NCBI GenBank assembly: GCA_023380635.1
Contig: JAMCRP010000002.1
Coordinates: forward strand, 42,458 to 106,457
From: Patescibacteria group bacterium
Lineage (GTDB): Bacteria > Patescibacteriota > Microgenomatia > JAMCZE01
DNA length: 64,000 nucleotides
Direction of reading: 5' to 3'
Below are positions 13,237-54,222 of this stretch, one piece after another; the first letter of the stretch is position 1, and each line of letters starts with the position of its first letter. The notes beneath the pieces were generated by a model. The model saw nothing but the letters and a program-made list of their open reading frames with translations. It ran no database searches and had not been told where the DNA came from. A program made the position numbers and the translations under genes.

Positions 13237-13345
13237 ATTTGAAATTTACAATTTACAATTTGAAATAAATATCAAATTTGAATTTTTTGAATTTGAAGAA
13301 TTGAAATTTCATTGAAAATTTCAAAGTTCAAATTTCAAATTTTGT
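13237..13345. repeat. A/T-rich 8-bp periodic 'AATTT(G/C)AA' array immediately upstream of mreB
   Basis: caatttgaaatttacaatttacaatttgaaat...gaatttgaagaattgaaatttcattgaaaatttcaaagttcaaatttcaaatttt. Confidence 0.8.
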
Positions 13346-13347
13346 GT

Positions 13348-14481
13348 ATGTTTGGTAAGCGCCTTGGTATCGATCTCGGCACCGCTAACTCTCTGGTTTA
13401 TGTCGTGGACCAGGGAGTTGTGGTTAATGAGCCGACGGTGGTGGCCGTGGCCGTTGACGACGGCAAAGTGCTGGCGGTTGGCAACGAAGCCAAGCAGATG
13501 ATGGGCCGAACCCCAGGAAATATCCGGGCGTCCCGGCCGATGCGCGACGGCGTCATTGCCGATTATATTGTTACCGAGGCAATGCTGCGCTATTTTCTCG
13601 ATCGGGTCTGCGGTTCGACGCGCTTTTTTAAGCCGGAAGTCATGATTTGCGTTCCGGCGGGGGTTACCCAGGTGGAGCGGCGGGCGGTGCTCGACGCGAC
13701 TTTAAGCGCCGGGGCCAAGGTGGCTTATTTAATTGACGAACCGCTGGCAGCGGCCATCGGCGCCAAAATTCCTATTGCCAACCCGAACGGGAACATGATC
13801 GTCGATATTGGCGGGGGCAGCACGGAAGCGGCGGTAATTTCCCTGGGTGGGGTGGTGGTTCACAAAAGTGCTCGGGTGGCCGGAAACAAAATTGACGAGG
13901 CGATTGCCAACTTCATTAAAAAAAAATATAACCTCTTAATCGGGGACACGACAGCGGAGGATATCAAGATTCAGATCGGGACAGCTGTGCCGCTTGGGAA
14001 GTCTCAGTCATCAGTTCTCGGTGGTCGGTTTTCGGAATCTGGTTCGTCAGTTAACCAGTTTTCAGTCCACAAAACTGAAAACAGAAAGACTGAAAAACCG
14101 GAAACTGAAGACAGACAACTGAAAACCGATAGCCGGACCATGGAAGTCCGGGGCCGGGACGCCGCGAGCGGCCTTCCAAGGATCATTGAATTCACTTCTG
14201 ATGAGGTAGTTGAGGCCGTCACACCAATACTTTCGCAAATTGTCACTGCTGTGAAGGGAGTGCTAGAGGAAACGCCCCCGGAATTGGCTTCAGACATAAT
14301 CGATAGGGGAATCGTGCTCAGCGGAGGTACTTCACTCCTTCGAAATTTGGATAAACTGATGACCCATACTATTGGTGTTCCGGTTCATACAGCCGATGAC
14401 CCTCTGTTTTGTGTGGTTAAGGGGTGCGGCATCGCCATGGAGAACATCGATTTATACAAACGGAGCATTAGCAAGAGGTAA
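13348..14481 (+). CDS. mreB: rod-shape-determining protein MreB (actin-like ATPase) with a low-complexity insertion
   Basis: GIDLGTANSLVYV, GVIADY and IDIGGGSTE actin-fold motifs. The listed ORF starts at 13312 inside the A/T repeat; the MreB-like start MFGKRLGIDLG is at 13348. A ~45-aa insertion (SQSSVLGGRFSESGSSVNQFSVHKTENRKTEKPETEDRQLKTDSRT) is encoded by an imperfect palindrome at ~14000-14140. Confidence 0.9.
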   Translation: MFGKRLGIDLGTANSLVYVVDQGVVVNEPTVVAVAVDDGKVLAVGNEAKQMMGRTPGNIRASRPMRDGVIADYIVTEAMLRYFLDRVCGSTRFFKPEVMICVPAGVTQVERRAVLDATLSAGAKVAYLIDEPLAAAIGAKIPIANPNGNMIVDIGGGSTEAAVISLGGVVVHKSARVAGNKIDEAIANFIKKKYNLLIGDTTAEDIKIQIGTAVPLGKSQSSVLGGRFSESGSSVNQFSVHKTENRKTEKPETEDRQLKTDSRTMEVRGRDAASGLPRIIEFTSDEVVEAVTPILSQIVTAVKGVLEETPPELASDIIDRGIVLSGGTSLLRNLDKLMTHTIGVPVHTADDPLFCVVKGCGIAMENIDLYKRSISKR

Positions 14482-14554
14482 CCCATAAGAATCTTCAGTC
14501 GCATTAGAAATTCTAGTTCTATAAACGGCATATTCACGCACGACAAAATGTACT

Positions 14555-14592
14555 CATTTTTGAAAATTTCGAATTTCAAATTTCAAATTGCG
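14555..14592. repeat. A/T-rich 8-bp periodic 'AATTT(G/C)AA' array downstream of mreB
   Basis: gaaaatttcgaatttcaaatttcaaattgcg. Confidence 0.7.
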
Positions 14593-15551
14593 ACTGGCCG
14601 ATAGCCGCGTGGTGGGGGAATGCGGGAAAATTTACCGGAAACTAGATCAAAATGTAGCAAGGGCAAAATTGAAAAAAACGCTTTTTGACCAGAAACCGGT
14701 AATAATTCCCAAAAATCTTCTAAACCCTATAATCTTTTGAAAAATTAAACGCTCTTTTTTGGCTTTTGAAACACCCGGTGGCAGATCTTCCGGCCGGTTT
14801 TGTTTCCTGTCTTTGGCAAAAATCGGAAAACAAAATGAAACAGTGGCAGGGAAGTGTCACAAACATTTAAGAACTGGCGAGAGTCAAGGCCGGTAAAGTA
14901 ACCTTCAAAGACAAAATGTCGAAATCCCTACATTGCCGTCGGTAATGACGGCTTTTCGAAATTAATTTCTCTCTTGCCGAGCCGAAGTTTCGAACGACGG
15001 CCGGCGGGCCACGGTTTTAGACTTCCAATAATTTGGAACCAAGCTTTAAAGCAAGGGGAAGACCTTATAGGACTATCGGTCTATTGTACAGGCGAAATAG
15101 AATTGTCTGTTTGGTGGCTAAAAAACTGCCGGAAAAGGGTTCCAGGTTAAAAGCGGTGACCAAAAAACAACTGAGATAGCCTTAAGATACTCTGATGCAC
15201 TACCATATATTAATATGTGGTCTGTTGCTTTGTCATCCGGCTTAAGGAATTTTTAACTCCAAACTCCAAAAAGACCTGGAACATGATATTTGAAATTTCC
15301 GATTTCCAGGGAATATGGGAGTTCTTTAATTTTTCACGGCTTTTCAGGACCAAGGTTTTTTGCCCGGAAACCCGGGAAAATTTTTCACTGAAGTCAATTG
15401 CTTCTTGACAGTAATCATTATTGTATGACTATACTTAATTAGGTCCCCGGAAGTCCCGGGAAGTCATCGAAAAGCTTGGCCTGAGAAGCTAAAAGCCATA
15501 AACGACGAAAAATTAATCTCTGTCTCAGAACTGATCGTTAAAGCCCGGTTA

Positions 15552-18500
15552 ATGGGTTTTGATTTTGGTTTCGGCAAGCCGGAACATGTTCTTCAATATT
15601 TTGGCAAGCTCGGTCTAATTCCCAAAACTGTCCGGATGCGCGTCGAGGGGATTAAGGGCCACACTGTCGGCTGCTACCCGGTCAGCACTCTGGACACCTT
15701 ACTGAAAATTCAAAAACTACGCCGCGAAGGGCGGTCTATGGCCCAGGTTCGAACCGAGATCACCGGAGAGCCGAATCCGCCAACTTTTGATCAGGAACAG
15801 CTTCAGTTGCCAAGCACGGAACTTGTCAGACGAGCTCAAGCCGCCGGTTTTGATTTTGGTCCGGGTAAGCCGGTTCATGTTCTCCAGTATTACAGCAAGC
15901 TTGGTCTCTTACCTAAAACGGTCAGACTCCGTCTAAACGGTATCAAAGGACATACAGTAGGCTGCTATCCGGCGGAAGCAGTAGAGACCCTGCTAAAAAT
16001 CCAGAAACTGCGCCGGGAAGGAGTGGCGGTTAAGGATATCGCCCAAACGCTGGGCAACGAAGGGATTAAGCCGGCAGCCCGGCGGGAGGAAGCCGAAACT
16101 TTGGAAATTCTCCGGGTCGCGGCCCAAGCCCCGGTCCGCTATCAAGCCGAAACCGAAGCCGGCAGGCTGGCCGGATATTTCCAACCCCCACCGCCAGAGA
16201 GACAAGAAACAAGATACAAGATACAAGAAACAAAGAAAACACAAGATGCAAAAGAAACAAAAGAGAAGAGAAGCTGGAAAAGCTTTGCTTACACTCTTCC
16301 GGCAGTTTTAGCTACTATCCTTCTGCTGTTAACTACCGGCCTGAATATATATATTACTTCCTATCAGAAGAAAGTGGCTTCTGACCGGAATTTGCAGGCG
16401 GTCTTGGCCGAAAGCAGCAGCCAAAACTTTTTAGACATCCGGGCGGATACCGATGTTTCCGGAAGACTGACCGTGTGGGGGAAAGATGTCTTAACAGAAG
16501 CGACTTTAGCTTCTTCTTCCCCCTACCTTAGCAACTTAAACCAAAGCCTCAGCACGACGGCCACTCCTACTTTTGCCAACCTTACCTTAACCGCCGGCAA
16601 GATTGTCCTGGAAGACAAAACGCAAACTTTAAAAAACAAATCGCTTTCGGGATCGGATAACACTTTTTCTAATATTCCCAACTCCGCTTTGGCTAACTCC
16701 AAAGTCACCGTGACGGCCGGCACCAACCTGACCGGGGGCGGGGATGTCGTCTTAGGTGACAGCACCACGATTGGTTTGAAGGACAACATTGCCTTAACGA
16801 CAGCGACTTTTTCTGGTCTACTGGGAGTGGGCGGGGACGCTTCTCTTTCAGCCGGATTGTACTTTTCCCTTGCCAGCCCAGTCATTGCCACGACAGACAT
16901 GCAATCCTTAACCTTAGGTAACAGCAATACCGGCAATATCCAGTTCTTTAACGCCTCAAACTATATTAATTCCGCCGGCAATTTAACTTTAGCTAATTCT
17001 TTGACGGTTAACACCACCACCAACTACACCGGCCTGGTTTTGCCAAACGGGGCCGGAATTAATTATGTCTTAACCACCGATGCTTTAGGCCATTCTTCCT
17101 GGACCAACCCCAACGGCCCGGGGACTTCCTTTAGCGGCTGGACCCTAACCGGCAACACCATTTACCCCAACGAAACCGCTTACGATCTGCTTTTAGGCAG
17201 CAGTAATGTTGTGGATGATGTGGCCAAATTCACCAACCTGGGCAGCACCCTGTTTAAGCCTTCAAATATTGCCAACCTAGCTAGCGGGGGAGATATCGGC
17301 ACGGCCGCAACCACGGTGGACATTTACACCACTTTTAATTTAAACCAGACAACATCCGGGCAAACAATCACTTTGCCCAACCCCACTAACACTACGGCCG
17401 GCCGCTTAGTCTATTTAGCCAACACCGGAACCACGCCTTTTAATTTCTTAAACAGTACGGTTTTAACCGGAACGACCACTCAAGCCATATGGAACGGGAC
17501 GGCCTGGACACTGGCTGGCTCCATGGCTGGTCTTCCGGCCGGAACTGTTGATAATTCAACGATGTATTGGGATAACGCCACTTCCCGGTGGCTGGAAAAC
17601 TCGAAACTTCTTTCCAACCCCTTGGGCACCATGCCGGTGGCTTCCGTAGCCGGAACCACTTCTTTTGCCGGGCTGGTAGTCGACAACACCATTGGGGACC
17701 TGTTTACGGCCAGTTCTTCAGGGAAGTCCCGCTTTACGATCACTCAAAACGGGAATGTCGGCGTGGGGATGGTTACTCCGACCGCTTTGTGGCAGGTTTT
17801 TGGCAATTCGACTGTCCAGGTGGCCAGTGTCTCGGCTTCTACCGGGAACGCGGCTCTTCTGGTTGACAACACCATTGGCGACCTCTTTACCGCGTCTTCT
17901 TCCGGAATGTCCCGGTTTGTGATTACGCAAAGCGGCAATGTCGGCATCGGAACGACGAATCCGGGCAATTTATTAGAAGTTGACGCAAACAGTAGCAATT
18001 ATGGCATAACCGTCAATGCGAATAATAGCGCGTTATCTCAAGCTGGGCTGAGACTTATTGCCGGTAACGGAAGTACTTCCCGGGCTGCTCGTTTGGATTT
18101 TCTTAACGTTCCGGCAAGCACATCCGTGCCACGGTGGACTTTTATTAATGACTATGACCAAAACGGTACAAATGACTTTAGATTTGTGAATAGTGATGGT
18201 TCAACGTCGGTCTTAACTTTATTGCAGGGCGGCAACGTCGGCATCGGGACGACGGGACCGGCGGCAACTTTGCAAGTTAACGCACCATATACTACCGCAG
18301 CACCACTGACGTGGGGCGCAACCGCTGGTCAAATTTTCAGAAATGAAAATTCGGAACTGGCCGTGGGACTGCTCAACAGTTCTCCATACCCGCTGTATTT
18401 ACAAGGTCGTACCAATACCAGTACTGCTCGTGACATTGTCATGAATCCAAGTGGTGGCAGCGTCGGCATCGGGACGACGGGGCCAAATTCGAAACTGACG

Positions 18501-20261
18501 GTAAACAACACAGGTTCTTATACAAATTTATCCTCGGCTTTCTCTGTTTGGGGCGGATCGACTACCTATACTATCGGCTCCTATTCCTATCCTGCCGAGA
18601 TACAGACAACTAGTAATAATCTTGGCCGCCTGCAATTTGCCGGCTACCGGAAATACAACCCGTATTATGACTGGGGAGGAACCGGGTTCAGAATTCAATA
18701 TGCTGTAGATAATTCGTTTACTGACGGTTCTTTGGCTTATCTATATTTAGGCACGGCGAATAATTACGCTGGACAGATATCCTTTGGAGTAGGCGGAGCG
18801 GATCGGGTAACGATAGACAACAGCGGCAATGTTTCTCTCAACACGGGAAATATTAACATGATTTCCGGAAATTCTAATACGACCATTATGGCCGACGGCA
18901 GCAATTATCTTTACCACACTTTTGCGGCAGGTAACGGGACCACGGGCGGTTATTATTTTTGTACCACCAACAATATAAGTCTCTGCCAAACCACTGGAAA
19001 CAACAACCGGGTTGCCTTCATAGATTCAATAGGAGACTTCTTTATCCGGAAAACTCTGACTCAGAATTGGGGCAGCGATTTGGCTGAAGGCGTTAAGGTA
19101 AACGACCCGGTTATTAATGAAGGCGATCTTTTGGTATTGCCGGTTACTCCAGCGAGTCCGGCCGGCCAGTTTGTGGCTACCAGAACGACCCGGGCCTACC
19201 AGGGTAATATCGCGGGCGTGGTTTCAACCAAACCGGGGATATACATGAATTCCCCAATACTGCCGGGCGATAAAGAGCCTAGTATGCCGGATATTCGGCC
19301 CCTGGCGCTATCCGGCCGGGTGCCGGTAAAAGTTTCCACCATAAACGGGCCGGTAACTGCCGGCGATTTGGTCACATCCTCAGAACTTGCCGGGATCGGT
19401 ATGAAAGCCAGCGTTCCCGGAGTGGTTGTGGGAAGAGCCTTACAGAGTCTGGATGTTTCCGCCTGCCAGCCGGTAGCTTCAGCTGCTGACATTGTCTGGC
19501 CTTCCGGAGATGACGGGAGCGATACTTTCAAGCGGCCTTGTTTCGAACTGCCGGACGGAACATATATCGGCAAAGTCATGGTGCTTGTTAACCTTGGTTG
19601 GCAGGATCCAACAAACGCTCAGCAAACGGAAATTGCTTCCCAGTCAGTTGATATTGCCACCATATCCGCGACTTTAGCTTCCTGGAATGATCTTTTGGGC
19701 ACCCCGTCAGCAACTTTGGCGGATTCGGTGGCCCACCTGGACGGTTTATCCCAGGATATTTCCTCTCTTATGGCCGATAACCTCCAGATTAAGTCCGATA
19801 TCCAGCTTCTTAAAGACCAGATGGCTTCGGTTTCGGCTAATCTTGCCCAGGTCCAAAGCCAAACGGCGTCTAATTCTGCCCAGTTGGCTTTGGGGTTAGG
19901 GGGTAACTTAACCATTACTTCGGATTTGGAAGTCTCGACTGTCAGTGCTTCCTTTGCCAACTTTTCTGATACCTTAAAAGTGGTCGGCAAGACCGAACTA
20001 GCTGAGACCAACATTGGAGGGAGTTTGACTGTCGGGCTATTAAGGTTTGACGATTTGAAAGCGGAGATCTCTTCCTTAACCGGAACGGTCACCGTTAACA
20101 GTAATTTGCAGGTGGCCGGAGATGCCACCGTGTCGGGAACGCTGCAGTCGGATAAGGTTAAAACTGGGGGGATTACCATCAAAGATAAGGTGACCGGCGA
20201 GCCATACTGCGTTACCGTCGAAAACGGAGTATTATTGAATACTAAAGGAGAATGTCAGTAA
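15552..20261 (+). CDS. giant membrane-anchored fibre-like protein (1569 aa): tandem divergent MerR-type HTH modules, single TM helix, large extracellular region with tail-fibre-like repeats
   Basis: The N-terminus has two copies of GFDFG-x-GKP-x-HVLQY(Y/F)-x-KLGL(L/I)PKTVR-x-R-x-GIKGHTVGCYP ... LLKIQKLRREG, matching MerR TLRYYE-GLL ... recognition-helix/wing layout. Then KKRSWKS, a TM helix (FAYTLPAVLATILLLLTTGLNIYITSY), and a S/T/N/G-rich region with four GNVGIGTT(N/G)P motifs. The N-terminal (~180 aa) and C-terminal (~210 aa) modules are shared with the 4697-aa paralogue. The first HTH helix appears to be encoded upstream of this ATG (see findings). Confidence 0.8.
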   Translation: MGFDFGFGKPEHVLQYFGKLGLIPKTVRMRVEGIKGHTVGCYPVSTLDTLLKIQKLRREGRSMAQVRTEITGEPNPPTFDQEQLQLPSTELVRRAQAAGFDFGPGKPVHVLQYYSKLGLLPKTVRLRLNGIKGHTVGCYPAEAVETLLKIQKLRREGVAVKDIAQTLGNEGIKPAARREEAETLEILRVAAQAPVRYQAETEAGRLAGYFQPPPPERQETRYKIQETKKTQDAKETKEKRSWKSFAYTLPAVLATILLLLTTGLNIYITSYQKKVASDRNLQAVLAESSSQNFLDIRADTDVSGRLTVWGKDVLTEATLASSSPYLSNLNQSLSTTATPTFANLTLTAGKIVLEDKTQTLKNKSLSGSDNTFSNIPNSALANSKVTVTAGTNLTGGGDVVLGDSTTIGLKDNIALTTATFSGLLGVGGDASLSAGLYFSLASPVIATTDMQSLTLGNSNTGNIQFFNASNYINSAGNLTLANSLTVNTTTNYTGLVLPNGAGINYVLTTDALGHSSWTNPNGPGTSFSGWTLTGNTIYPNETAYDLLLGSSNVVDDVAKFTNLGSTLFKPSNIANLASGGDIGTAATTVDIYTTFNLNQTTSGQTITLPNPTNTTAGRLVYLANTGTTPFNFLNSTVLTGTTTQAIWNGTAWTLAGSMAGLPAGTVDNSTMYWDNATSRWLENSKLLSNPLGTMPVASVAGTTSFAGLVVDNTIGDLFTASSSGKSRFTITQNGNVGVGMVTPTALWQVFGNSTVQVASVSASTGNAALLVDNTIGDLFTASSSGMSRFVITQSGNVGIGTTNPGNLLEVDANSSNYGITVNANNSALSQAGLRLIAGNGSTSRAARLDFLNVPASTSVPRWTFINDYDQNGTNDFRFVNSDGSTSVLTLLQGGNVGIGTTGPAATLQVNAPYTTAAPLTWGATAGQIFRNENSELAVGLLNSSPYPLYLQGRTNTSTARDIVMNPSGGSVGIGTTGPNSKLTVNNTGSYTNLSSAFSVWGGSTTYTIGSYSYPAEIQTTSNNLGRLQFAGYRKYNPYYDWGGTGFRIQYAVDNSFTDGSLAYLYLGTANNYAGQISFGVGGADRVTIDNSGNVSLNTGNINMISGNSNTTIMADGSNYLYHTFAAGNGTTGGYYFCTTNNISLCQTTGNNNRVAFIDSIGDFFIRKTLTQNWGSDLAEGVKVNDPVINEGDLLVLPVTPASPAGQFVATRTTRAYQGNIAGVVSTKPGIYMNSPILPGDKEPSMPDIRPLALSGRVPVKVSTINGPVTAGDLVTSSELAGIGMKASVPGVVVGRALQSLDVSACQPVASAADIVWPSGDDGSDTFKRPCFELPDGTYIGKVMVLVNLGWQDPTNAQQTEIASQSVDIATISATLASWNDLLGTPSATLADSVAHLDGLSQDISSLMADNLQIKSDIQLLKDQMASVSANLAQVQSQTASNSAQLALGLGGNLTITSDLEVSTVSASFANFSDTLKVVGKTELAETNIGGSLTVGLLRFDDLKAEISSLTGTVTVNSNLQVAGDATVSGTLQSDKVKTGGITIKDKVTGEPYCVTVENGVLLNTKGECQ
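16270..16790. repeat. 521-bp block 100% identical to 21964..22484 (shared TM plus proximal ectodomain module of the two giant genes)
   Basis: Direct base-by-base comparison of the two regions (constant offset 5694) shows no mismatch from gaagctggaaaag to ggacaacatt. Confidence 0.9.
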
Positions 20262-20300
20262 AATTTTCAATTTGAAATTTAAAATTTGAAATTAGGTTTG
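20262..20300. repeat. A/T-rich 8-bp periodic 'AATTT(G/C)AA' array between the giant gene 1 stop and the tagA-like start
   Basis: aaattttcaatttgaaatttaaaatttgaaattaggtttgaatt. Confidence 0.75.
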
Positions 20301-20302
20301 AA

Positions 20303-21227: not shown

Positions 21228-24200
21228 TTGACAAATCTGTTCAAATCTCCGCATACTGATTATGCTGTGAAAAAAAGCACTGACGCCGGACTTTTAAAAA
21301 TTGGTGACGCTGCAAAGTTTCTTAATGTTTCTATCCAGACTCTTCGTCGTTGGGATGAGAGCGGAAAACTGAAACCGGTGGTGACTCCTGGAGGAACAAG
21401 ATTCTACGAAAAACAGGCCTTAAAAAATATCCGGGTCGGAAACGGAGTAAGGGAAACAGATGGTACGGGAGAAATGAAGTCGGAGCAGCAAGTAACAAAA
21501 AAGACGGGGAAATTCAGTAAGCGAGGACTGGTGAAGATTGGGACGGCAGCAAAACTACTGGGGATTTCAATTCCTACCTTGCGACGCTGGGACGAGATGG
21601 GCAAACTCCGGGCTGTGGTCAGCCCTGGCGGGACGCGTCTGTATTCTAAAGATTCCCTGGCGGCAATCAACCCGGCTTTATCCGAATATAAAATTCTCAA
21701 GAGCGAGGAACCCGAGATTAAACCAGCCAAACAATTTATTAAGGAAGTCGTATCTGAGGTTCTCCACCAGCAAAAGGCGGTTTTGCAGCTGCCGCCACCG
21801 GTTAATCCCATTCAAACTATCTCAGAGTGGAGCCAAGAGCCGGTACACTATCGGGCAGAAACGGAAGCAGGGAGAATAGCCGGATACTTCCAAAAACCGC
21901 CCCCGGAAGATACAAGAAACAAGATACAAGAAACAAGAGAAACACCGAATACAAGAAAGAAGCGAAGCTGGAAAAGCTTTGCTTACACTCTTCCGGCAGT
22001 TTTAGCTACTATCCTTCTGCTGTTAACTACCGGCCTGAATATATATATTACTTCCTATCAGAAGAAAGTGGCTTCTGACCGGAATTTGCAGGCGGTCTTG
22101 GCCGAAAGCAGCAGCCAAAACTTTTTAGACATCCGGGCGGATACCGATGTTTCCGGAAGACTGACCGTGTGGGGGAAAGATGTCTTAACAGAAGCGACTT
22201 TAGCTTCTTCTTCCCCCTACCTTAGCAACTTAAACCAAAGCCTCAGCACGACGGCCACTCCTACTTTTGCCAACCTTACCTTAACCGCCGGCAAGATTGT
22301 CCTGGAAGACAAAACGCAAACTTTAAAAAACAAATCGCTTTCGGGATCGGATAACACTTTTTCTAATATTCCCAACTCCGCTTTGGCTAACTCCAAAGTC
22401 ACCGTGACGGCCGGCACCAACCTGACCGGGGGCGGGGATGTCGTCTTAGGTGACAGCACCACGATTGGTTTGAAGGACAACATTAGCGTTACTTCGGTCA
22501 CCAGTTCCGCTCTAACAGTTAATGGAGACGCGGCTATTACCGGAAATTTGAATGTGGGCGGAGGCTTGCAATTTTCTAGCCTGGCGGTGACGGGGACAAG
22601 CGGAACAGCTCCGGTGGCTTCCATTTCCGGTAAAACGTCCTTTGCCGCCGTGGTGGTGGATAATTCCGGCTCAGGTGACTTGTTCACCGCTTCCACTGCC
22701 GGCCAGCCCCGCTTTACGGTTAATTCCAACGGCGACCTTTTACCCGGCATAACCAGTCATCAAAGTATCGGTTCTCCCACTCAGGTCTGGGACACCATCT
22801 ATGCCAATAATCTTTCCGGCACAAACTGGTCAGGAAACATCATCGGTACTCAATATGGCGGCACGGGTCAAGATTGGCACCTGACGGCTCAGGGCAATGT
22901 GCCTTATTTTTCAGCTTCCGGAACCATGAACACCCTGGCGCCCGGCACCAACCATCAGGTTTTTGTGACCCAGGGGGTTGGCGCCAATCCCAAATGGGAA
23001 GACCTGGTCAATTTGTTGACGCCGGGGACGGACATCACTCTGGGGGGAACTAATGTGGTCACTATTAATGACGCTTCCACTTTACAATCGGTTACCGGTC
23101 GGGGGGCGGCAACAACTAATCCCATCACTTTGAATTTAACCGGAGGTAATGCCTATTTTGGTTCCGGTAATGCTTCAGCCCTGGTCGATCTAAGTTCTAC
23201 CTCCAAGGGGTTCTTGACGCCACGCATGACTCAGGCCCAACGGGATGCAATTAGCACTCCGGCACCGGGGTTGCTAATCTATAATACTGATACAAACCAA
23301 TTCAATGTGTATAACAGTTCTACTTGGGGGGCTATTGCTGGAGCGGGGGCGGCGTACTGGGGAGATAATATCGGCGCGTTATATCCGCTATACCTCAACA
23401 GTGATTTATTAATCGGATCTGACGCCACGGCTTCCGCTTTAATCCGGCTTGAGGGCACCACGGGCTATATAACGGCTAACCGGATCAACGGCAACAAAAT
23501 CGCGACCGGATCAGGGAATGTGGCGGTTTCGGCGACTTTGCCTTTGGCCGTCGATACCAACGGCAACATGACTTTGGCCTATACCTCAAACCTGAAAGTG
23601 ACCTCAAGCCAACTGGATACGGCGCAAAACATTGGCCCGAGCGCCTCGCCGCAATTCGTCAGTCTGACGCTCGGGTCAGGAACTACCGGCACTCTCCAAA
23701 CAGCAGCGCTGACTGGCAGTCGCACTTGGACATTGCCAGACAACACCGGAGAAATATGCACGACCTATGGCAATTGTATCGGGGGCGTCGGGGGATCCGT
23801 TGGCGGTTCCGGTACCAATACCAAAATTGCCATGTTCACTCCTGACGGAACCCATATCGGCGATTCCCACATTACCGACACCGGAACTCAGATCCAGTTT
23901 TTTAATACTAGCAATTACATTGATTCCAGCGGCAATTTCTATTTAAACGGTTCATTATTTGCCTCCGGTAACGAGGCGGGTTTTTGGCAGCGGCAGAGTG
24001 GAGTGTTAGCTCCTAAGAATATCACCGATTCTTTGATAATTGGTGGTAACGCGACTGGATCCGGACAGCTACAGGTTTATGGTTTGAACTCGCAAATGCC
24101 GGTGGCGTCAATTTCCGCCCAGACACCCTGGGCAGCCCTGGTCGTGGATAATGCGACCGGTGACCTTTTCACAGCCAGTTCATCAGGAATGACCCGTTTC

Positions 24201-27200
24201 ACGGTTGGTAATACCGGTAATTTGACGGCCGGGACCTATAACACTGCCACTATCACCGGGGGGTCGCTCTCGGCCACGGCCGTAAATGGCGTGGCCACGG
24301 CCAACATTTTAACCACCGGCACCACTTTTGCCGGGGATGTTGGCGGCAGTTACAACAATTTGGCTATCGGGACGGGGAAGGTAACTAACCCCATGCTTTC
24401 CGGGCCGGTGGACACAACCCACGGAGGAACGGGCAATGACTGGCATCTGACGGCTCAGGGCAATGTGCCTTATTTCTCCGCGGCCGGAACGATGGGTCTC
24501 CTGGCGCCCGGGACAGCGTCGCAGGTTTTAACTACCGGTGGGGGCGGCGCGGATCCAGCTTGGACTAACATGGCCAGTTTGGTTACCGGAGCTGGTAACA
24601 TCACTGTCACAGGAACACAAACTCTATCAATTAACACGGTTAACAACCCCACTTTTAGCACTTCGGTCACGACACCGCTTTTGACAAACTCCGGTAATTT
24701 ATTAATTAACCCTACCGGTAATGTTGGGATCGGAACCACCAGCCCGGCGGCTTTGCTTTCGGTGGGGACAAATTCTGATTTACGGGTAAACGGCACCGGG
24801 GACATTGTCGCCCGGACTTACAACGGCAATATTATTGCCACCGGTTCCGGGACTTTAACTTTGGGATCCGCCTCGTTAAACATTGGTACCGGCGGAACAT
24901 TGAATACGGGCGCTTACGCCGATATTTCTTTGTACGCGCCCTTGGCCAGCCCGACTTTTACCGGCACCGTGACGATTCCCACTTCATTTGTTTTGGGCGC
25001 CACGACGGTCACCACGACCGGGACCCAACTGAACTACTTAAACGCTGCCACGGGAACCACGGGAAACACCAACTCCAACCTGGTTTTTTCCAACGGGCCG
25101 ACCTTAACTTCGCCGGCCTTTTCTACCATCGTCAATGTCGGCACTTTAACCCTGCCAACTACTTCTGATACGCTGGTTGGCCGGGCCACGACCGATACTT
25201 TTACCAACAAAACTTTTGACACGGCCGGGACCGGGAATATCCTGAGGATTAACGGCACCCAAGTCTCCGCCGTCACCGGCACGGGTTCCGTGGTTTTAGC
25301 TTCGGCGCCCACCATTAGCAACCCGATTATTACCAATATTAACCCCGGAGCCGATTTCACTTTAACCCAAAACAGCGTGACTCCTTTTATTTCCTATAAT
25401 TCCGGGGCGTTGGCCAACACTTTGGTCTTAAGCGCCGGCAGTGTGGGCATCGGGGTAACGAATCCGGGGGCTAAATTGGATGTGGCCGGCGCCGCTTCGA
25501 TTTCCGGCATTCTTACCTTAAACAACGGAGTGACCACCCAAATTAACGCTACCAATGACCGCAGTCTCGATTTGGGTTTTGCCAACACCGGCCGGGTCAA
25601 CTTTTTAACCACGAGCAGCTATATTGATGCTAACGGCAATTTTTCAACCAACGGCCAAATCCAGGTGGGAAGTTTTGCCAGTGCCCCGACGGCCCTCGGA
25701 GCCGGGAGCATGTATTACAACTCCACCGAAAACCGTCTTTACGCTTATAACGGCACGAACTGGAGCCCGCTGGGGGAGCAAAGCACGGTGGTGGTCACCA
25801 ATAATTCCGGCACCACTTTAAATCCAAAAGACCTGGTCATTTTTGACTCTTCGGCAAACAATGCGGTCACGACAACCACGACTGCCTACAAAAAGGGTGT
25901 GGTTTATGGTGTGGTGGTTGATGCCTCATGCGCCAGCGGGGCGACCAACTGTAAAGTCCAGATTTCCGGCAAGGTAGATGTCTCGGTCACAAATTCTAAC
26001 GCCGCCAAGGGGGATTATGTTTTCACCTCGACAACCGCGGCCAAAGGCGTCACTTCGGCCAAACTTTTTGACGGGTTGATCGGGATTGTGACCGATAACA
26101 CCAATGCCGGATCAGGCTATGTGACGATCATTTTCCAGCCGCAGGCCCAGGTGTTGGCCGGAGTGGTGATGGACAAAATCAGCAGACATAATGACTATAA
26201 AATTTATTCCAATATCTACACTCCCATCAATGAGGGTTCGGTTTTTAGTCCCAATTTAACCGCCCGGGGAATTTCTTTTGACAACTTTTTAGACCAGACC
26301 AAGGTTGATGCTGCTTTAACAACGGTCGGATCAACCATGTCTGCCCAGATCCAGTCACCAACAGCCCAGACCAGTGCGCCGTTTAGAATGGGGCTAACGG
26401 GCGGGCAAACCTACAATACCACTAACACCGATAACGCCGGTAACGCCTATTTAGGCTCCAACACGGTCAACAAAGTCTTTTATTACGACCGGACCCGCGA
26501 TTCCATCCCGCAAGTTCAAGTAGAGTTAGGAATTGACCCGAACTGGTACAACGGTGTCACTTTGTCCGTCGCTTCTACTTCAGCCCAATTCTCGCAAGCG
26601 GATACGATCACTAAACCCAATCCCAATCTTTCCACGGCTTACAACGGAAGTTTGGTCAAGGTTTCCGGAACCTATCCGACCCAGGCGGCGACCAGAACCA
26701 TCTATTTGACGATTACCTCGCCGACGCAATTCACCTGGTCCGACGGCGCCGTCGGCGCTAACAATGTCTCCATTAATCCCGGTGTTTCTCAGGCTTTGGG
26801 CACGACGGGTGTTTCCGTGACTTTCACCAATGTTAAATATAACCCCGGTGATGTCTTCCGGATTGCCTCCTGGGTCGTCGAGCCGGCCTCATCAACCCGC
26901 GGTTCCAAAGCCCAGTTCCCGGAAAGAAGCTATGTGATCGGGACAGCTTCCTCTGTCGATATTATTGACGCGGATACGAATAAACTTTGGATGCGCTTTA
27001 CCATAAATGCGACATCCTGGGCCGTCACTACCATGCTTATTGACGCTTCGTCAAGCGTGACTGCCCTGAATGGAACAATCTATTCTTCCCAAGGAGCCAG
27101 CGGTCTTTTGAAAATAGTTTTTGACCGAGATACCGGTTTTGGTTTTACAACCGACTGGACCAATTACGGCGGAACATTTAGAGGCGGTATCGCCCAGAGA

Positions 27201-30200
27201 AACACCCAGAATGGTTACGCTCAAAATGTCCCTCTAAACATTGTCAATAACACTGTTAACGATATCTCTGCCGCCGTCATTCCCAACCAGCCGACCCAAA
27301 CCGTGACGACAAGCGGGTGGGGATATATGTACCTTAATGCTGCGGGCTCGAATTACGAAGTCGTAAATCTTCCGTATAAATTTAACGATATACCGAAAGT
27401 GGTTATATCCGCATCAGCCGAACGGGCCACAGCACCAACTAATTACGGTGATTGTTCGTGGGGTATATCAACCAACTTTGTTGCCAACACCTATTCGGCT
27501 ACCACCAGTAACTTCGGGGCAACAATAGCTACTCCGGGCAGCGGAACCACCACCGGCTATATTTGTTACACCTGGACCGCCACCGGCGTTGTTTCCCCGA
27601 GACAATATGTGGCGGTGGGAACTAATCAAGGCGTTACCGTGATTAATGAGACGGATCAAAGTGGTGTGAACTATAGTACAGTAAGTTCTGGGGACCATAA
27701 TGTAGGAAGTGTTTTCTTAACCTCTAATGACAACCTTTACTTTAGTTATCCCTGGTCTTACCCAACAGACGTAAAAGTTGCTGTCCAATATGGCGTTGCG
27801 GGGGTTACTTCAAATGTCGCCTGGGACAGTTGGAGCGGAAATTATGCGTCAATTGGAAATAGCTGGAGCAATAAAGGTCCAACGCCATTACAGAGCTCAA
27901 CAAACTATCAGATTTTCGTTACTTCTGGAACTTCAACCATTGATGGAAAGAGCAATACAATTTATGTATCCGGTTCCAATGGTTTGACGGTTATCCAAGA
28001 AAAACAAGCCGGACGTTTTGGTACTGCTGAATCCTATGTTCCGTCAGATGAAAATAATGGCTCTGTTAAATACTACACCAAAGACTACATTTCCGAAGAA
28101 ATGGTCGGGGACATTCGGGGCATGTGGCCGCTTAATGGAACGCTTTCTGATGCTTCAGTTAAAGGCAATACGCTAACAGATGGTGGCATAGCTTTTGGAA
28201 CTGGTGTTCGGGGCCAAGGAGCGGTCATTTCCGGATTGAGCTTTCTTTACTGCACGGATGCCAGTTGCGGCGGGACGAGTAAGTTGGATTCTGGAGGTAC
28301 TGCCTGGAGTTTTGGAGCCTGGTTTAAGACTACTTCGACAGGAGGGACAATTATTTCTAAATATAACGGCGGAGTTAGCGGCGCATATTTTTTAGCAGTT
28401 GACGGTAGCGGAAAACTCTCCGGAGATATCGAACAAAGTCCATATACTTTCACCGGAAACAAAATTGTGAATGACGGTAATTGGCATTTTGGTGTCGTGA
28501 CATACGACGGAGTGTCGGCAAAGATTTACGCTGATGGTCAACTTGACAGTTTGGTCGCCATGACAGGAAACATTCCTGACACTACTGCTAACTTTGCGAT
28601 TGGCGCTCGATATACCGGCGGCAGCGTTTCTAACATTTTACTCGGTTCTATTGATGAACCCTTTGTTTCCGCTACAGCTTTAACGGCCAACCAGATTAAA
28701 CACATGTACGAAGTCGGCGCCCGGGCGCTTCAATCACATAGTGCTTCTTTGGGTGGCGGGGCGGCAGACGCTAATCAAAAGCTAGGGACAAATGTGGCTT
28801 CCGTGTCAGCCGCAGCGGTTGATTACAACAACCAGTTTATGTATGTTGGGGCTAATGACTCGACCAATGGCGGCGTTTCTAAAATTGATTTAAACAGCGA
28901 CACAAATATCCGGACTATCCAAACCGCCAACACTCCGGTCGGCGGCACGGTCTTGCCGGCCAAAACCGTCTCTTCTCTTGCTGCCGGGTACAATTTGGAA
29001 GTTGTGGGCACGGGAACCGGGGCTATCGGCATGGCTCCGGATGACAACGCCAACAACCTGAGTGGGACTCTTTACAGCAAAACTTTAACGACTCCGGAAA
29101 GTTTCTCCCAAGCCTATATCTGGAGCCAACAGGTGACGGACGCGGCCGACGCAGCCAACACGGTCACCGTCTGGGCATCTAATGACGGCGGGTCAAACTA
29201 TTACCAATGCAACCAAACGAATACAGATTCTACCCAGACGCCAACGGAATATGAGTATTTTTGCCAGTTTAATGCCGTTGGAAGTTCTTTAAAGATTAAG
29301 GAGGTTTTTGCCAGGGGTTCGACGAAAACGAACACTTATGTCACCAGGTATGGCGTGGCTTGGATTGATAGTAGTAACGCTATCGGGTCTAATCCTTTGG
29401 GTAACGGAATGTATACCAATAACGCGACCGTGGCGGACAGTTCGTACCTTGAGGTGGCCCACAACCAAAACACCGCCGACGCCGTGGCTAATGCCTGGAT
29501 TTCTTCGGAGTCAAAGTGGAAACAGTTGGATGCCACCTATAAACCGGTCGCCGCTTATGACGGACTTTCCGGCGTCTTAAGTGAGTACCATGATCTAGCC
29601 GCAAACTACAAAACCGGGGATTTAGTTTCCACCCCTTCGGGAATACTTTTTGATACTTTTAAGGACATTACCAAAACCGCTTCGGCCGCCAGCACCTTGT
29701 CTTTGGATTTTGGCAAAAACCGGGTAGGCCTAATGGGCGGACAAACTTTTAACACCACCAATACCGACTCTGACGGCAACGCATTGTTGGGCTCCAACAC
29801 GGTTAACAAGGTTTTCTATTATGACCGGATAAACAAAGATTCCTCGCCCCAAGTGCAGGTGGAACTGGGCGTTGATCCGAACTGGTATAACGGGGTAACC
29901 TTGTCAGTTGCCACCACCTCTGCCCAGATGAGCCAGTCGGAAACAACTGTTCCTGCCGGCAAGAATCCCAACCTTTCAACCACCTATAACGGCTCTCTGG
30001 TTAAAGTCACCGGGACTTACGCTACGACAGCCGCGGCCAGGCCAATTTGGATTACGATTTCTGACAACTCTTCGTTTGTTTGGACAGACTATAACGGCAA
30101 CGGCGGGACAGCCAGCCTTCAGCAGGGTGTCACGCAGGCTTTGGGATCAACCGGCGTTTCCGTGACCTTCACGGGGACAAAATATAACATCGGCGATGTC

Positions 30201-37088: not shown

Positions 37089-37191
37089 TCCAACTCTTCA
37101 CGCAAGCTCTTTCTTGCGATCCTCCTTCACTTTGCTCAGTCCGGGTCTAAAAAAGGAGGCGGTTCTTTGGTTGCTCGGTATGGGTAAGTAA
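37047..37191. repeat. duplicated gene 3' end: the last 13 codons plus stop of the HTH gene recur ~65 bp downstream with synonymous changes only
   Basis: aag aaa gag gcg gtt ttg tgg cta ttg gga atg ggt aaa taa (37047-37088) versus aaa aag gag gcg gtt ctt tgg ttg ctc ggt atg ggt aag taa (~37150-37191). Both translate to KKEAVLWLLGMGK*. The spacer carries the hairpin cgcaag-ctcttt-cttgcg (37101-37118). Confidence 0.8.
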
Positions 37192-38239: not shown

Positions 38240-38320
38240 ATAGTCACCTCCAGGAAAATTTGAAATTTACAATTTTAAATTTGAAAATTCAATTCAAATT
38301 TCGAATTTCAAATTGAGAAT
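38240..38320. repeat. A/T-rich 8-bp periodic 'AATTT(G/C)AA' array between rplJ and rplL (upstream of rplL)
   Basis: ggaaaatttgaaatttacaattttaaatttgaaaattcaattcaaatttcgaatttcaaattgagaatt. Confidence 0.8.
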
Positions 38321-38784
38321 TATTTTTTAACTTGTGTCAGTAAGTATGCTAGTTTCTGAGTATTCGCGTTAAGAGTAAACATGAGCTGGGCGATTAAGCC
38401 TTCTTTTGACGGCAAACTGGCGATCCGGGTAGTTTCAGCCGCGTCATATTCAGTCCCGCCCAAAACGCTCATTTTGACCGCCGGTTTGGAATTAGTTTTA
38501 ATAAATTTGACCAATTCCCGAAGCGGAGCAAATTCGTCTTCATAAGCTAACAGGACAGCAGTCGGGCCGACGCTGGTGACTGGTTTCTGGTTTCTGGTAG
38601 AGGCAATGTTTAGCAGGCTGTTTTTGACCACAACATATTCCGCGCCGGCTTTTTTGACGCTTTTGTGCAGGTCTTCCATCTGTTTGTGGGTGAGACCCTG
38701 ATAGTCGGTTAAAACCAGGCCCTTGGCTTTTTTGAGCTTTTCTTCCAGTTTTCCGACGGTTTCGATGTTTTTAGCTTTAGGCAT
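38320..38784 (-). CDS. rplJ: 50S ribosomal protein L10 (short form)
   Basis: N-terminal KxxxxVxxLxExLxKAxGxVLTDYQGLT...MxxLRxxVKKAGAEYxVVKNSL pattern; position between rplA and rplL. Confidence 0.9.
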   Translation of the reverse strand: MPKAKNIETVGKLEEKLKKAKGLVLTDYQGLTHKQMEDLHKSVKKAGAEYVVVKNSLLNIASTRNQKPVTSVGPTAVLLAYEDEFAPLRELVKFIKTNSKPAVKMSVLGGTEYDAAETTRIASLPSKEGLIAQLMFTLNANTQKLAYLLTQVKK

Positions 38785-38810
38785 TAAAAAACTCGGTCAA
38801 AGACCGAGCG

Positions 38811-38850
38811 AAACTTAAGTAACTTAAAATTCTTAAGAAACTTATGATGC
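38811..38850. repeat. tandem 9-bp 'nnnCTTAAG' array in the rplJ leader region
   Basis: aaacttaag taacttaaa attcttaag aaacttatg; ~30 bp upstream of the rplJ start on the minus strand. Confidence 0.75.
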
Positions 38851-43241: not shown

Positions 43242-43305
43242 ACTAATTGCTAAATTGTTTCATTGTTACATTGTTAAATTATTAGCAATGTAGCCATGTA
43301 GCAAT

Positions 43306-47220: not shown

Positions 47221-47229
47221 CCACCCGTT

Positions 47230-52534: not shown

Positions 52535-52966
52535 TTAAGAAGTTTTTTCTGCGATCTTACTGATCTGTCCGGCCGTAAAGTTAAATTGAAAAAGGACATG
52601 GGGATAGATGTTAACTATTGACCGATAAAGACTGGCAGGAGAAGTAAAATCCAGATTTTTGGAAAGCAGCTGGGTGTCAATTTCCACATTTTGGGAAGCC
52701 TGGCAGATTTGGTCAGTCCCGTTTGGAGCCGTCTGGCAATTTTGATTAAAAATGCCTGACGGATTATCGACCGGAGCGATTGTCATATTAACCATGGCAT
52801 TATTAAACGAGATATTTTTGATATACCCGGAAGCAACCGGCGGGATCGGCGCGGGAATTATGGCTCTGGCAGGTTCAAGAGATAACCAGCCGAACGCTGC
52901 CAGGATACCGGCAATTATTAAAACAATAAAAATTCCCAGCAAGACAAAGGTGAAGTTCTTCAGCAT
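52535..52966 (-). CDS. hypothetical membrane-anchored protein
   Basis: N-terminal TM (FVLLGIFIVLIIAGILAAFGWL); 143 aa. Confidence 0.4.
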   Translation of the reverse strand: MLKNFTFVLLGIFIVLIIAGILAAFGWLSLEPARAIIPAPIPPVASGYIKNISFNNAMVNMTIAPVDNPSGIFNQNCQTAPNGTDQICQASQNVEIDTQLLSKNLDFTSPASLYRSIVNIYPHVLFQFNFTAGQISKIAEKTS

Positions 52967-53079
52967 AGTTCCATACTATTCTCGAAAAATTAAATTTCTG
53001 AAAGAGCATGACCGAGCCTTGCCCCTTTCTTACAAAATTTTAGCCCCTTTTTTGTGCCTGAGCATTACCTTTAGACCCA

Positions 53080-53412
53080 ATGCTTGATATACCAGATAGG
53101 CAAAATATTACGGTTGACCATCAGGAGATTGCCGCTTGGGCGCAAAAGTTTAACGGCCGGCCGCAGCGAATCGGAGAAAATGGTTACAGTTCCATCCGCA
53201 TCGATTTTCCTGGTCACGGTGATGACACTTTTTTCAGTTCCGATAAACGCCCCGTGAACATCAGTTGGGACGAATTTTTCCGGATATTTGAAGAACAGCA
53301 CTTGGCTTTTATTCACGAAGACAAGGATGTTTTCGACCCCAGTCTGGCTTATCACTTCATTAAACGGGAAAACGCTTTCGAGGAAGAAACTATCGATCAC
53401 ATCTTCGGCTGA
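53080..53412 (+). CDS. hypothetical protein (ambiguous; a fully overlapping minus-strand ORF 53071..53400 exists)
   Basis: Charged, soluble-looking sequence (ISWDEFFRIFEEQHLAFIHEDKD). The antisense ORF has a GTGA overlap with the upstream phosphoesterase gene, so strand assignment is unresolved. Confidence 0.3.
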   Translation: MLDIPDRQNITVDHQEIAAWAQKFNGRPQRIGENGYSSIRIDFPGHGDDTFFSSDKRPVNISWDEFFRIFEEQHLAFIHEDKDVFDPSLAYHFIKRENAFEEETIDHIFG

Positions 53413-54122
53413 TTTTTAACCTCATACAGATAAAACGACTTCGGCGGCGACAGGTGACGCAGAACATCCAAGGCGACATTATGAACAGGAACCCCTTTTG
53501 GGGTTTTTCCCTGAAACTTTCCGTGGTGGGAATGACCGTGGAAGACGATGGTCGCGCCTAAATTATCAATGGGTTCGACTAACCGTGAGGAGCCTAAAAA
53601 TGGATAAACTTCCAACGATTCGCCTTCAATCGTCTCGGTGATCGGAGCATAGTGCAGCAGGACTATTTTTATTTTGGTCTCCAGATGGGATAGAGCCCGC
53701 TCCAGTTTTAGAGTCTCACCGATATCATCCGTGGCAAAAACTTTTATCGCCGGTTCCCCCCAGGGCGGCAGGTGGTGGGGGGCAAAGCCCCCGCCAAAGC
53801 CCTTGGCCCCGGCAAAACCCACACCGTCTTTAACGACCCAGTCGCCATCAAGAACCTGGACCCGTTCGCTTTCAATAATTTTTGTGACTTCCTCGATTTG
53901 GTCGCTCTCGAAGTCATGATTGCCTAGAACAGCCAGGACGGGGATGGAACAGTCTTTAAGCTGAGCTGCCAGGACTTTAGCCTCCGAAGGCTCGCCATGG
54001 TCGGTCAGGTCGCCGCCTAAAAGAAGAATATCCGCTTTTCCGGACACTTCCTTAAAAATTTCCCGGCAACTGTCGGGCTCGGATATTTTGGTGTGCAAAT
54101 CGGCAAGAGCAGCAATAATCAA
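53397..54122 (-). CDS. calcineurin-like metallophosphoesterase
   Basis: LLLGGDLTDHG, VLGNHD and a GHSHH-type motif in canonical order. Confidence 0.8.
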   Translation of the reverse strand: MIIAALADLHTKISEPDSCREIFKEVSGKADILLLGGDLTDHGEPSEAKVLAAQLKDCSIPVLAVLGNHDFESDQIEEVTKIIESERVQVLDGDWVVKDGVGFAGAKGFGGGFAPHHLPPWGEPAIKVFATDDIGETLKLERALSHLETKIKIVLLHYAPITETIEGESLEVYPFLGSSRLVEPIDNLGATIVFHGHSHHGKFQGKTPKGVPVHNVALDVLRHLSPPKSFYLYEVKNQPKM

Positions 54123-54222
54123 TTTGAAATTTGAACTTTGAAATTTGAAATCAATTTTAAAATTTAAAATTAATCAATTTCAAATTCAATTCAAATTTAG
54201 AATTTCAAATTAAAAATTAGTG
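54110..54222. repeat. A/T-rich 8-bp periodic 'AATTT(G/C)AA' array (largest copy), upstream of the phosphoesterase gene
   Basis: aatcaatttgaaatttgaactttgaaatttgaaatcaattttaaaatttaaaattaatcaatttcaaattcaattcaaatttagaatttcaaattaaaaatt. Confidence 0.8.

Follow-up and report, generated by a model that had tools for sequence, protein, structure and literature searches.

Seven A/T-rich spacers in a 64,000-nucleotide stretch of DNA from a Patescibacteria group bacterium (contig JAMCRP010000002.1, positions 42,458 to 106,457; this whole stretch is the window referred to below) most probably hold ten arms of one heptamer-repeat element, the full form of which is a cassette carrying a gene for a four-helix-bundle protein from a family named '23S rRNA intervening-sequence protein' (IVP). 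We place the probability of this identity and architecture at about 85%; the whole package, in which identity, architecture and the mechanism proposed below hold together, has slightly less than an even chance of being right.

A first-pass annotation, made from the sequence alone, had described dispersed A/T-rich arrays of an 8-bp unit, AATTT(G/C)AA, at seven intergenic sites, mostly abutting start codons. The arrays themselves and their non-random placement were borne out. All seven places hold A/T-rich arrays (12-24% GC, compared with 48% for the window), all seven are intergenic, and five of them occupy the entire stop-to-start spacer. The motif AATTTSAAATTT, with at most one mismatch, had 57 matches in the window, compared with 2.8 ± 2.2 expected from dinucleotide shuffles, and these were confined to the seven sites except for two overlapping matches at 15286-15298. 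A detector of AATT chains (AATT cores spaced 6-9 nt) returned 14 chains, 13 of them inside the seven sites, against 0.78 in locally shuffled sequence. The unit length, in contrast, had to be revised, because Tandem Repeats Finder gave a period of 7 at every site (units AATTTGA or AAATTTC) and the autocorrelation peaked at 7 in seven of seven sites; the 8-mer arose because a base common to adjoining units had been counted. The suggestion that the arrays are strongly bent A-tract DNA is doubtful on reasoning, since a 7-bp unit does not keep phase with a helical repeat of 10.5 bp.

The sites are not plain direct arrays either. Each consists of one or two arms of ~30-50 bp, the left arm being the reverse complement of the right, and once the right arms are reverse-complemented, an alignment anchored at the outer ends puts all ten in register (alignment A1). 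The consensus of the ten arms is AATTTGAAATTTGAAATTTNAAATTTGAAAT, which reads inward from the outer end as AATTTGA AATTTGA AATTTNA AATTTGA. The gene-bearing cassette has its left arm at site 4 and its right arm at site 5: site 4 (35322-35364) lies between the stop codon of giant gene 2 (35321) and the ATG at 35368, and site 5 (35755-35797) ends 5 nt before the ATG of a GalT-like gene (35803). Together they form a 43-nt inverted repeat, 81% complementary (95% over a 22-nt core), with 390 nt between the arms. Sites 1, 6 and 7 are palindromes that lack an open reading frame (ORF) and have the form (AATTTGA)n, a gap of 7-20 nt, (TCAAATT)n; they are imperfect, with arms of 29-43 nt that are 72-80% complementary. 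Site 1 (13236-13342; left arm ~13236-13278, right arm ~13299-13342; a 43-nt inverted repeat, 72% complementary) is wedged between the mreB promoter box TGcTATAAT (13208-13216) and the mreB ATG (13348). Site 6 (38256-38321; arms 38257-38285 and 38293-38321; a 29-nt inverted repeat, 76% complementary) lies in the spacer between rplJ and rplL, both on the minus strand, with the Shine-Dalgarno (SD) sequence of rplL outside the element. Site 7 (54114-54218; arms 54121-54161 and 54178-54218; a 41-nt inverted repeat, 80% complementary) spans the spacer between two minus-strand genes, and the TTG start of a phosphoesterase gene (54122) falls within its outermost unit. The remaining two sites are single arms. 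Site 2 (14559-14590), ~75 nt past the mreB stop, is of the right-arm (TCAAATT) type, its reverse complement is in register with the left arms, and an inverted-repeat search found no inverted partner for it; site 3 (20262-20294), of the left-arm (AATTTGA) type, takes up the whole spacer from the stop of giant gene 1 (20261) to the start of tagA. The earlier statement that arrays flank both giant genes thus held only loosely: site 2 is ~960 nt upstream of giant gene 1, the 5′ side of giant gene 2 has no array, and site 4, which had been taken for a boundary of giant gene 2, pairs with site 5 and belongs to the small-gene cassette.

The cassette gene (35368-35733, plus strand) encodes a 121-aa four-helix-bundle protein, an Avd homologue, which matches PF05635 (E=9e-14), TIGR02436 (E=1e-18) and PDB 2RLD (E=6e-13, five chains) and has about 4,855 homologues. 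It is the avd-like gene of the first-pass annotation, which had missed its tie to the arrays along with their unit length and inverted-arm design. Giant gene 2 and the GalT-like gene, between which the cassette is wedged, are two co-directional host genes. A second, divergent four-helix-bundle gene (37211-37813, 200 aa; TIGR02436 plus TIGR04258, 'four helix bundle suffix') adjoins rplL; it has no AATTTGA arrays beside it. PADLOC gave no match for either four-helix-bundle protein of the window, and no IVP relative was found in viral contigs by the protein search used here.

Comparison with relatives indicates that the arrays were added to existing spacers. AATTTGA arrays are missing both at rplJ-rplL and upstream of mreB in the loci from relatives (L001-L006), whose L10 proteins are 79% and 72% identical to that of the window; the rplJ-rplL spacers there are 49 nt and 125 nt long and array-free. 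In one of these loci, L004, the gene order is rplJ, rplL, a 199-aa gene at the place equivalent to the 200-aa gene of the window, GalT, tagA, mreB and PEGA. Giant gene 1 (15552-20261, 1,569 aa), giant gene 2 (21228-35321, 4,697 aa) and the IVP cassette are all absent from this syntenic block (11927-14818), and the giant genes are therefore lineage-specific insertions. The mreB-PEGA spacer is 38 nt in L004 (14818-14856) and 162 nt in the window, the surplus being the site 1 palindrome. The extended -10 box upstream of mreB is conserved between the two (TGcTATAAT in the window, TGCTACAAT in L004), but it stands 6 nt before the mreB ATG in L004, an arrangement that suggests a leaderless mreB mRNA there, whereas in the window the 107-nt palindrome separates box and ATG. 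Because the orthologous spacers of relatives lack the arrays, we regard the arrays as insertions and, as judged from this comparison of sequences, the seven sites as lineage-specific insertions into spacers and 5′ leaders and not as native promoter arrays. Site 2 has an old counterpart, since a related A/T repeat array lies directly downstream of mreB in L004 (13760-13808).

The same comparison bears on two further proposals of the first-pass annotation. The giant genes are indeed absent from L004, but the arms around giant gene 1 are misoriented for a split palindrome, which speaks against arrays that delimit giant-gene cassettes. A link to MerR-type helix-turn-helix (HTH) modules finds no support, because the small HTH (excisionase/MerR-like) ORF of the window (36885-37090) is conserved in L004 (11720-11925), which has no AATTTGA arrays. 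The last 42 nt of this ORF are duplicated 103 nt downstream at 76% identity (37047-37191). The ~960 nt before giant gene 1 (14600-15551) hold no long ORF and begin with a part homologous to the L004 spacer between mreB and tagA; in this non-coding stretch lies the minor eighth occurrence of the motif, a lone two-unit match, TATTTGAAATTT (15286-15298), which may be due to chance. A Y1 transposase gene (IS200/IS605 or RAYT-type) is found at 3489-4142 of L001/L002, near the ribosomal protein cluster of a relative without arrays.

The association of IVP genes with inverted heptamer arms extends far beyond the window. A protein search of genome contigs gave 80 IVP loci, 43-66% identical to the query and mostly from many Patescibacteria lineages, with a minority from Verrucomicrobiota and one Pirellulales metagenome-assembled genome (MAG); the 88 IVP loci together cover Patescibacteria, Cyanobacteria, Verrucomicrobiota, Bacteroidota, Spirochaetota and Chloroflexota. 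At most loci the upstream flank aligns with the reverse-complemented downstream flank at z>6, and the flanks consist of two arrays of tandem A/T heptamers, one reaching from the upstream stop to the IVP ATG and the other, complementary to it, lying between the IVP stop and the ATG that follows. Arrays with AATT period were detected on the left of 62, on the right of 58 and on both sides of 53 of the 80 IVP genes. The median inverted-repeat score was 42.5 for IVP genes, compared with 17 for 438 other genes of the same loci, and scores of at least 40 were reached by 58% of IVP genes and 3% of the others (Mann-Whitney p=2e-31). The best period was 7 in 73 of 88 left and 74 of 88 right flanks but in only 18 of 168 control segments, and period-7 arrays occurred in 64 of 118 IVP-adjacent spacers, as opposed to 34 of 197 other spacers (odds ratio 5.7, p=1e-11). 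Long ORFs lie on both sides of the IVP gene in 77 of the 80 loci, the gene is co-directional with both neighbours in 56, and the median spacers of 55 and 66 nt are near arm length, so that the arms take up most of them.

The heptamer itself varies by genome (AATTTGA, AATTTTC, AATTTTG, AATTTTA, AATTTTT) and co-varies between the two arms. The dominant unit was equal in the left and right arm in 20 of 47 pairs, a noisy comparison because arms mix related units, and arm pairs were 89-100% complementary in four loci (L065, L072, L077, L087), with unit variants mirrored over 35-65 nt. The nearest IVP relatives keep the AATTTGA/TTCAAAT unit: in one with an 81% identical IVP, the right arm differs little from the one at site 1, and in another (78% identical) the gene is flanked by a full palindrome on either side. 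Arms made of AATGACG/AATGACT heptamers are seen in the GC-rich Verrucomicrobiota and in the Pirellulales MAG. IVP genes found in plasmids by tblastn were chiefly in Nostocales, and seven of the eight plasmid regions inspected had inverted heptamer arrays, again with other units. Examples from outside the Patescibacteria are Nostoc flagelliforme (AATTCGT, a perfect 35-nt inverted repeat), Anabaena (GTAAAAA, with the IVP gene between cas2 and cas1), N. punctiforme (AGGTCGG, beside TnsA and XisH/XisI), Planktothrix (AATCCCC/AATCGTA, between DrmD and PglX), Treponema (GGAAAGN/CTCTCCG), Bernardetia (a long run of GATTAGT) and Chlorohelix (GAAGGAT, between a helicase and an N6-methylase). We conclude that inverted period-7 arms are a conserved property of IVP genes across phyla and that the unit sequence is free to change. 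In the cultured bacteria (L088-L092), the arm-flanked IVP genes lie within operons for defence or mobility, and on a Pseudanabaena plasmid such a gene lies between csx2 and cas1; this location in defence operons may explain reported 'CRISPR-associated' IVP hits.

ORF-less and single arrays are also widespread. Palindromes like sites 1, 6 and 7 occur in three other loci of the Candidate Phyla Radiation (CPR; L034, L045 and L030); the two cassettes of L030, which are separated by 2 kb, differ in their units. The 29-nt arm consensus is present in at least 120 metagenome contigs, and 88 matches in 80 loci were analysed among the matches listed; in 22 of 81 of these, a gene starts 0-22 nt outward of the arm's outer end. 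Thus, IVP genes are nearly always flanked by arrays, and most arrays have no adjoining IVP gene. Six metagenome loci (L099, L105, L108, L112, L127, L133) contain ORF-less elements of ~180 nt that combine arms of AATTTGA type with an inner ATCAATTTGAAAT motif and, at the centre, a small GC hairpin (e.g. AAAACGACGTCGGTTTT); they resemble structured miniature elements. Rfam gave no match in these six elements, nor at the arrays of the window (gathering threshold or E≤1). In three further loci (L118, L128, L134), as seen by eye only, lone (AATTTGA)4 arrays lie on the opposite strand just after an SD-preceded ATG and appear to form the first codons of a gene, which would be translated as MKFQISNFKFQI... 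(read as MKFQISNF...), followed by a hydrophobic stretch; such a translated array may be the n-region of a signal peptide or a frameshift-prone contingency tract.

These features are consistent with the idea that the cassette is a selfish element, like an intervening sequence (IVS), that would dwell in transcribed spacers. Sites 1, 6 and 7 would be the same arms joined after loss of the ORF, that is, miniature derivatives. The arms would act as paired ends which, on one transcript, could form an A-U duplex of 22-40 bp around the ORF, or a hairpin. In the rRNA-borne IVS with a gene of this family, a duplex of that kind is what RNase III cleaves; cleavage here might free the IVP message and part the host cistrons from each other while sparing them polar damage. 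RNA folding gave partial agreement with this mechanism: the cassette arms pair in both the minimum free energy and the centroid fold (z=-2.1), and site 7 folds at -25.1 kcal/mol (z=-3.5), a value that none of 200 shuffles equalled.

Several results weigh against this mechanism, or against mobility of the element. The site 1 and site 6 hairpins were no better than shuffles (z=-0.7 and -0.6), and sites 2 and 3, as single arms, are unable to pair. At mismatched arm positions, G:U was no commoner than A:C (71 versus 76, and 78 versus 89), and even in the best-matched cassettes the difference (31 versus 21) was not significant; there is therefore no signature of selection for pairing of sense-strand RNA. 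It looks as if complementarity is kept at the DNA level, through copying or homogenisation, or as if the arms are too young for RNA-type selection. A search of the window for RNase III motifs was empty, which is uninformative about the rest of the genome. No direct repeat that could be a target-site duplication is shared outside the arms at sites 1, 4/5, 6 and 7, and neither a transposase nor near-identical copies of the element were seen, so that mobility is putative. Among the 88 metagenome matches listed, an IVP gene was inside in only one, and most are lone (AATTTGA)4 arrays, which cannot pair; a partner arm was found in few, by a conservative classifier that undercounts palindromes visible by eye. 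Finally, 17% of the non-IVP spacers in IVP loci also carry heptamer arrays, and therefore IVP genes may simply favour array-rich spacers.

The closest known counterpart of the cassette is the IVS of rRNA genes. [quoted passage not shown] ORFs annotated as 23S_rRNA_IVP are also found within insertions in CPR 16S and 23S rRNA genes (PMC11270868). The window cassette shares with these a PF05635/TIGR02436 ORF (~360 nt) placed within a transcription unit of the host, terminal inverted repeats on either side of the ORF that can close a stem, and a total length of ~430-480 nt. It differs in its location, which is between protein-coding genes and not in rRNA helix 45, 25 or 9 (in the window, Rfam gives two tRNAs only), and in its arms, which are tandem 7-bp arrays; RNase III cutting has been shown for the rRNA IVS and is presumed here by analogy.

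The arms are best read as a CPR version of the short tandemly repeated repetitive (STRR) type of heptamer repeat. Repeats of this type have 7-bp head-to-tail units in ~3-16 copies, are intergenic, and often end a few nt before an SD-less start (PMC4679880, PMC4692102, bioRxiv 10.1101/2022.06.06.494920); the window arrays likewise have a 7-bp unit repeated head to tail in at least three copies at dispersed, often start-adjacent intergenic sites. TAACTGA repeats, known from Beggiatoaceae, where they end mostly a few nt from start codons, occur also in Cyanobacteria and Bacteroidetes (PMC4679880). GGGAATC repeats form 70-75 inverted pairs in Xanthomonas, and GGGGAYT is found in Nostoc (PMC4692102). 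In Nostoc PCC 7120, TTTTGAA/TTCAAAA repeats lie near start codons, and their deletion changes recO/recF expression (bioRxiv 10.1101/2022.06.06.494920). The Nostoc unit TTTTGAA is almost the CPR unit, and inverted pairs are frequent in Xanthomonas too. Unlike these repeats, the window arms have a fixed four-unit design, a defined outer end and an inverted partner, and occurrence in a Patescibacteria MAG would extend the host range described so far (Cyanobacteria, Beggiatoaceae, Bacteroidetes, Xanthomonas); we found no literature report of heptamer repeats in Patescibacteria. Term searches found no mention of four-helix-bundle or IVS proteins in the three heptamer papers (PMC4679880, PMC4692102, bioRxiv 10.1101/2022.06.06.494920), and literature searches by family name gave no paper linking heptamer repeats to the IVP family, although database family descriptions or further papers may note the link. 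The coupling between IVP genes and inverted heptamer arrays, seen across phyla, appears to be new.

Other systems share single features with the cassette. Short palindromic intergenic elements are also typical of repetitive extragenic palindromes (REP/BIME) with their RAYT genes, which are flanked by inverted copies, and of MITEs (miniature inverted-repeat transposable elements) such as the Neisseria Correia elements; RNase III reportedly cuts Correia transcripts, and outward promoters are also ascribed to these elements. The window element has terminal inverted repeats (sites 1, 4/5, 6 and 7), but its arms are tandem heptamers instead of unique sequence, no target-site duplication accompanies them, and the sole ORF-bearing version encodes a four-helix-bundle protein, so that no autonomous, transposase-encoding relative was found. 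PF05635 is homologous to the Avd protein of diversity-generating retroelements (DGRs; PMC10053308). A DGR was nevertheless rejected, because ten mid-size ORFs tested gave no reverse-transcriptase Pfam match, there was no pair of template and variable repeats around the cassette gene, and no direct repeat of at least 40 nt links the giant gene to a template. The neighbours of the cassette gene are a giant gene and a GalT-like gene. An integron attC site was also dropped, as there is no integrase, no R′/R′′ core, and two arms per gene instead of one site.

Four other explanations of the arrays were weighed. Protein binding and recombination, both raised as candidate roles by the first-pass annotation, are live options of unequal standing. 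The first, unlikely but to be taken seriously, is that the arrays are cis sites, in DNA or in the 5′ part of the mRNA, for a trans-acting protein, namely an IVP pentamer, that tunes the adjacent gene; bracketing of the IVP gene would then reflect autoregulation, and inversion symmetric binding. The arrays do abut starts (mreB and GalT at 5 nt, the phosphoesterase gene at 0 nt, the IVP gene at 3 nt, and the 22 of 81 listed metagenome matches given above), single arrays are common, the RNA wobble signature is lacking, the strict 7-nt period irrespective of unit suggests a structural reader, and Avd binds nucleic acid. Proteins of PF05635 are homologues of Avd (PMC10053308). A binding regulator has been proposed for TAACTGA heptamers near starts (PMC4679880), and a binding protein has been postulated in Nostoc (bioRxiv 10.1101/2022.06.06.494920). 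However, IVPs equally close to the query (64-66% identical) are flanked by differing units (AATTTGA versus AATTTTC or AATTTTA), and the two L030 cassettes use different units; with similar IVPs between different units, sequence-specific recognition by IVP is hard to sustain. In addition, the arms upstream of the IVP gene (left) and of the next gene (right) are oppositely oriented, and a strand-specific leader function can therefore not hold for both.

Alternatively, the arrays could be neutral or near-neutral products of slippage, that is, heptameric microsatellites in the A/T-rich spacers of a repair-poor genome, inverted by template switching at quasi-palindromes, with the IVP gene merely inserting or surviving there. 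We consider this rather improbable. Units are heterogeneous inside an arm, orthologous spacers of relatives are array-free, other spacers of the window hold unrelated short tandem arrays (CTTAAGNNN, GTTAC/GTAAC, ATTGTTAC), period-7 arrays are present in 17% of non-IVP spacers, and the mismatch spectrum is without RNA-type selection, all as slippage would have it; PMC4692102 also cites heptamers as over-represented among bacterial simple sequence repeats and polymerase slippage as a suggested cause. Slippage does not readily explain, however, why ten arms share a four-unit consensus with a defined outer boundary, why enrichment beside IVP genes is strong and spans phyla, or why unit variants are mirrored between the arms in the four highly complementary pairs. 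The array downstream of mreB has, furthermore, been kept in the relative with a 72% identical L10.

A promoter or UP-element role, also put forward in the first-pass annotation, is doubtful at best. Arrays of this kind would supply -35/-10-like hexamers (TTGAAA, TTTACA, TACAAT, TCAAAT) before starts in an SD-poor, likely leaderless genome, and in fact only 11 of 47 gene starts in the window have an SD-like motif, -10-like boxes stand 6-12 nt before many ATGs (by reading, unscored), the TCAAAT of the terminal unit precedes three starts (mreB, GalT and the phosphoesterase gene) by 6-7 nt, whereas a TCAAAT precedes that of rplL, which has an SD, by 20 nt, and 9-10 of 12 promoter-like matches fall inside arrays, for example TTGAAA-18-TAAAAT on the minus strand at 54183-54154. 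Yet sigma-70-like matches were not clearly above shuffles (10 versus 8.1, 12 versus 5.5 ± 2.7 and 2 versus 2.7), several were on the wrong strand, and in every pair one arm faces the wrong way. The conserved -10 box of mreB lies outside the array, the orthologous rplJ-rplL and mreB spacers (the latter in L004) are array-free, and the variable unit base alters the hexamers between genomes yet co-varies between arms. The GC-rich units found in other phyla (AATGACG, AGGTCGG, CTCTCCG) speak against an A/T promoter element as what the arrays generally are, although the A/T-rich version may have incidental outward promoter activity.

Least probable of the four is that the arms are DNA recombination sites, either of an inverton flipped by a recombinase or as homology patches that move cassettes (giant genes, IVP) in and out. 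The geometry is inverton-like (a ~400-bp segment between inverted repeats of 40-60 bp), the syntenic L004 locus lacks the two giant genes as well as the IVP cassette, single arms lie at both ends of the giant gene 1 region, and some IVP genes adjoin XisH/XisI, TnsA or integrase genes. However, the bias of IVP genes to co-directional orientation (56 of 80) is unexpected for a freely flipping segment, no recombinase was found beside cassettes in the window, and around giant gene 1 the order of the arms is R...L and not the L...R expected of insertion into a palindrome.

The window contains other repeats and signals besides the heptamer arms. A second tandem family has 9-bp units on the palindrome CTTAAG (CTTAAGNNN; CTTAAGTATCTTAAGATACTTAAG of this family is a perfect palindrome) and is found at 9676-9717, 10400-10444, 11083-11110, 34949-34981 and 38810-38850. 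These arrays occupy stop-to-start spacers, one of them ending 5 nt before tRNA-Arg (11116) and one lying upstream of rplJ, and another is within the ORF of giant gene 2; among 87 sequences checked, they were seen only in the window and in L008. Blocks of GTTAC/GTAAC in inverted arrangement lie between convergent genes at 11870-11970, and 8-bp units of ATTGTTAC type precede the gene at 43306 (43242-43305). On the minus strand at 38791-38809, a hairpin (GCTCGGTCTTTGACCGAGT) with TTTTTT after it resembles a terminator and ends directly at the rplJ ATG, the position expected of an L10 leader, and the Rfam L10 leader was not found in the window. A TAnnnT-like box stands 6-12 nt upstream of many starts (e.g. 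8041, 58898, 54952, 62839), and with SD-like motifs at ~11 of 47 starts this pattern suggests that leaderless transcription may be widespread in this Patescibacteria genome.

For the window, reading the sites as arms of an IVP-bearing element accounts for seven odd spacers through insertion of a single element family. IVS-type cassettes are, on this reading, not restricted to rRNA genes but would also occur inside ordinary operons, including CRISPR-cas and DISARM/BREX loci, which matters for the annotation of such systems. To our knowledge, heptanucleotide repeats have been noted for decades without their origin or a binding partner ever being found, and the TIGR02436/PF05635 family, with thousands of close homologues in CPR alone, has no known role outside DGRs. 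The coupling of the two, which extends from CPR to cultured Nostoc, merges these puzzles into one testable question, for which Nostoc, Anabaena and Planktothrix are tractable organisms. One tentative and, on balance, improbable extension is that IVP proteins and 7-nt arrays form a single two-part system across phyla, in which the pentameric protein would read the 7-nt period whatever the unit and may propagate the arrays, the gene would travel as a cassette bracketed by inverted arrays, and ORF-less arrays (STRR, TAACTGA, GGGAATC and the CPR AATTTGA) would be its cis sites, shaping the expression or processing of abutting genes. If true, it would account for a class of repeats on record since 1990 and assign a role to a very large protein family now listed as 'hypothetical'.

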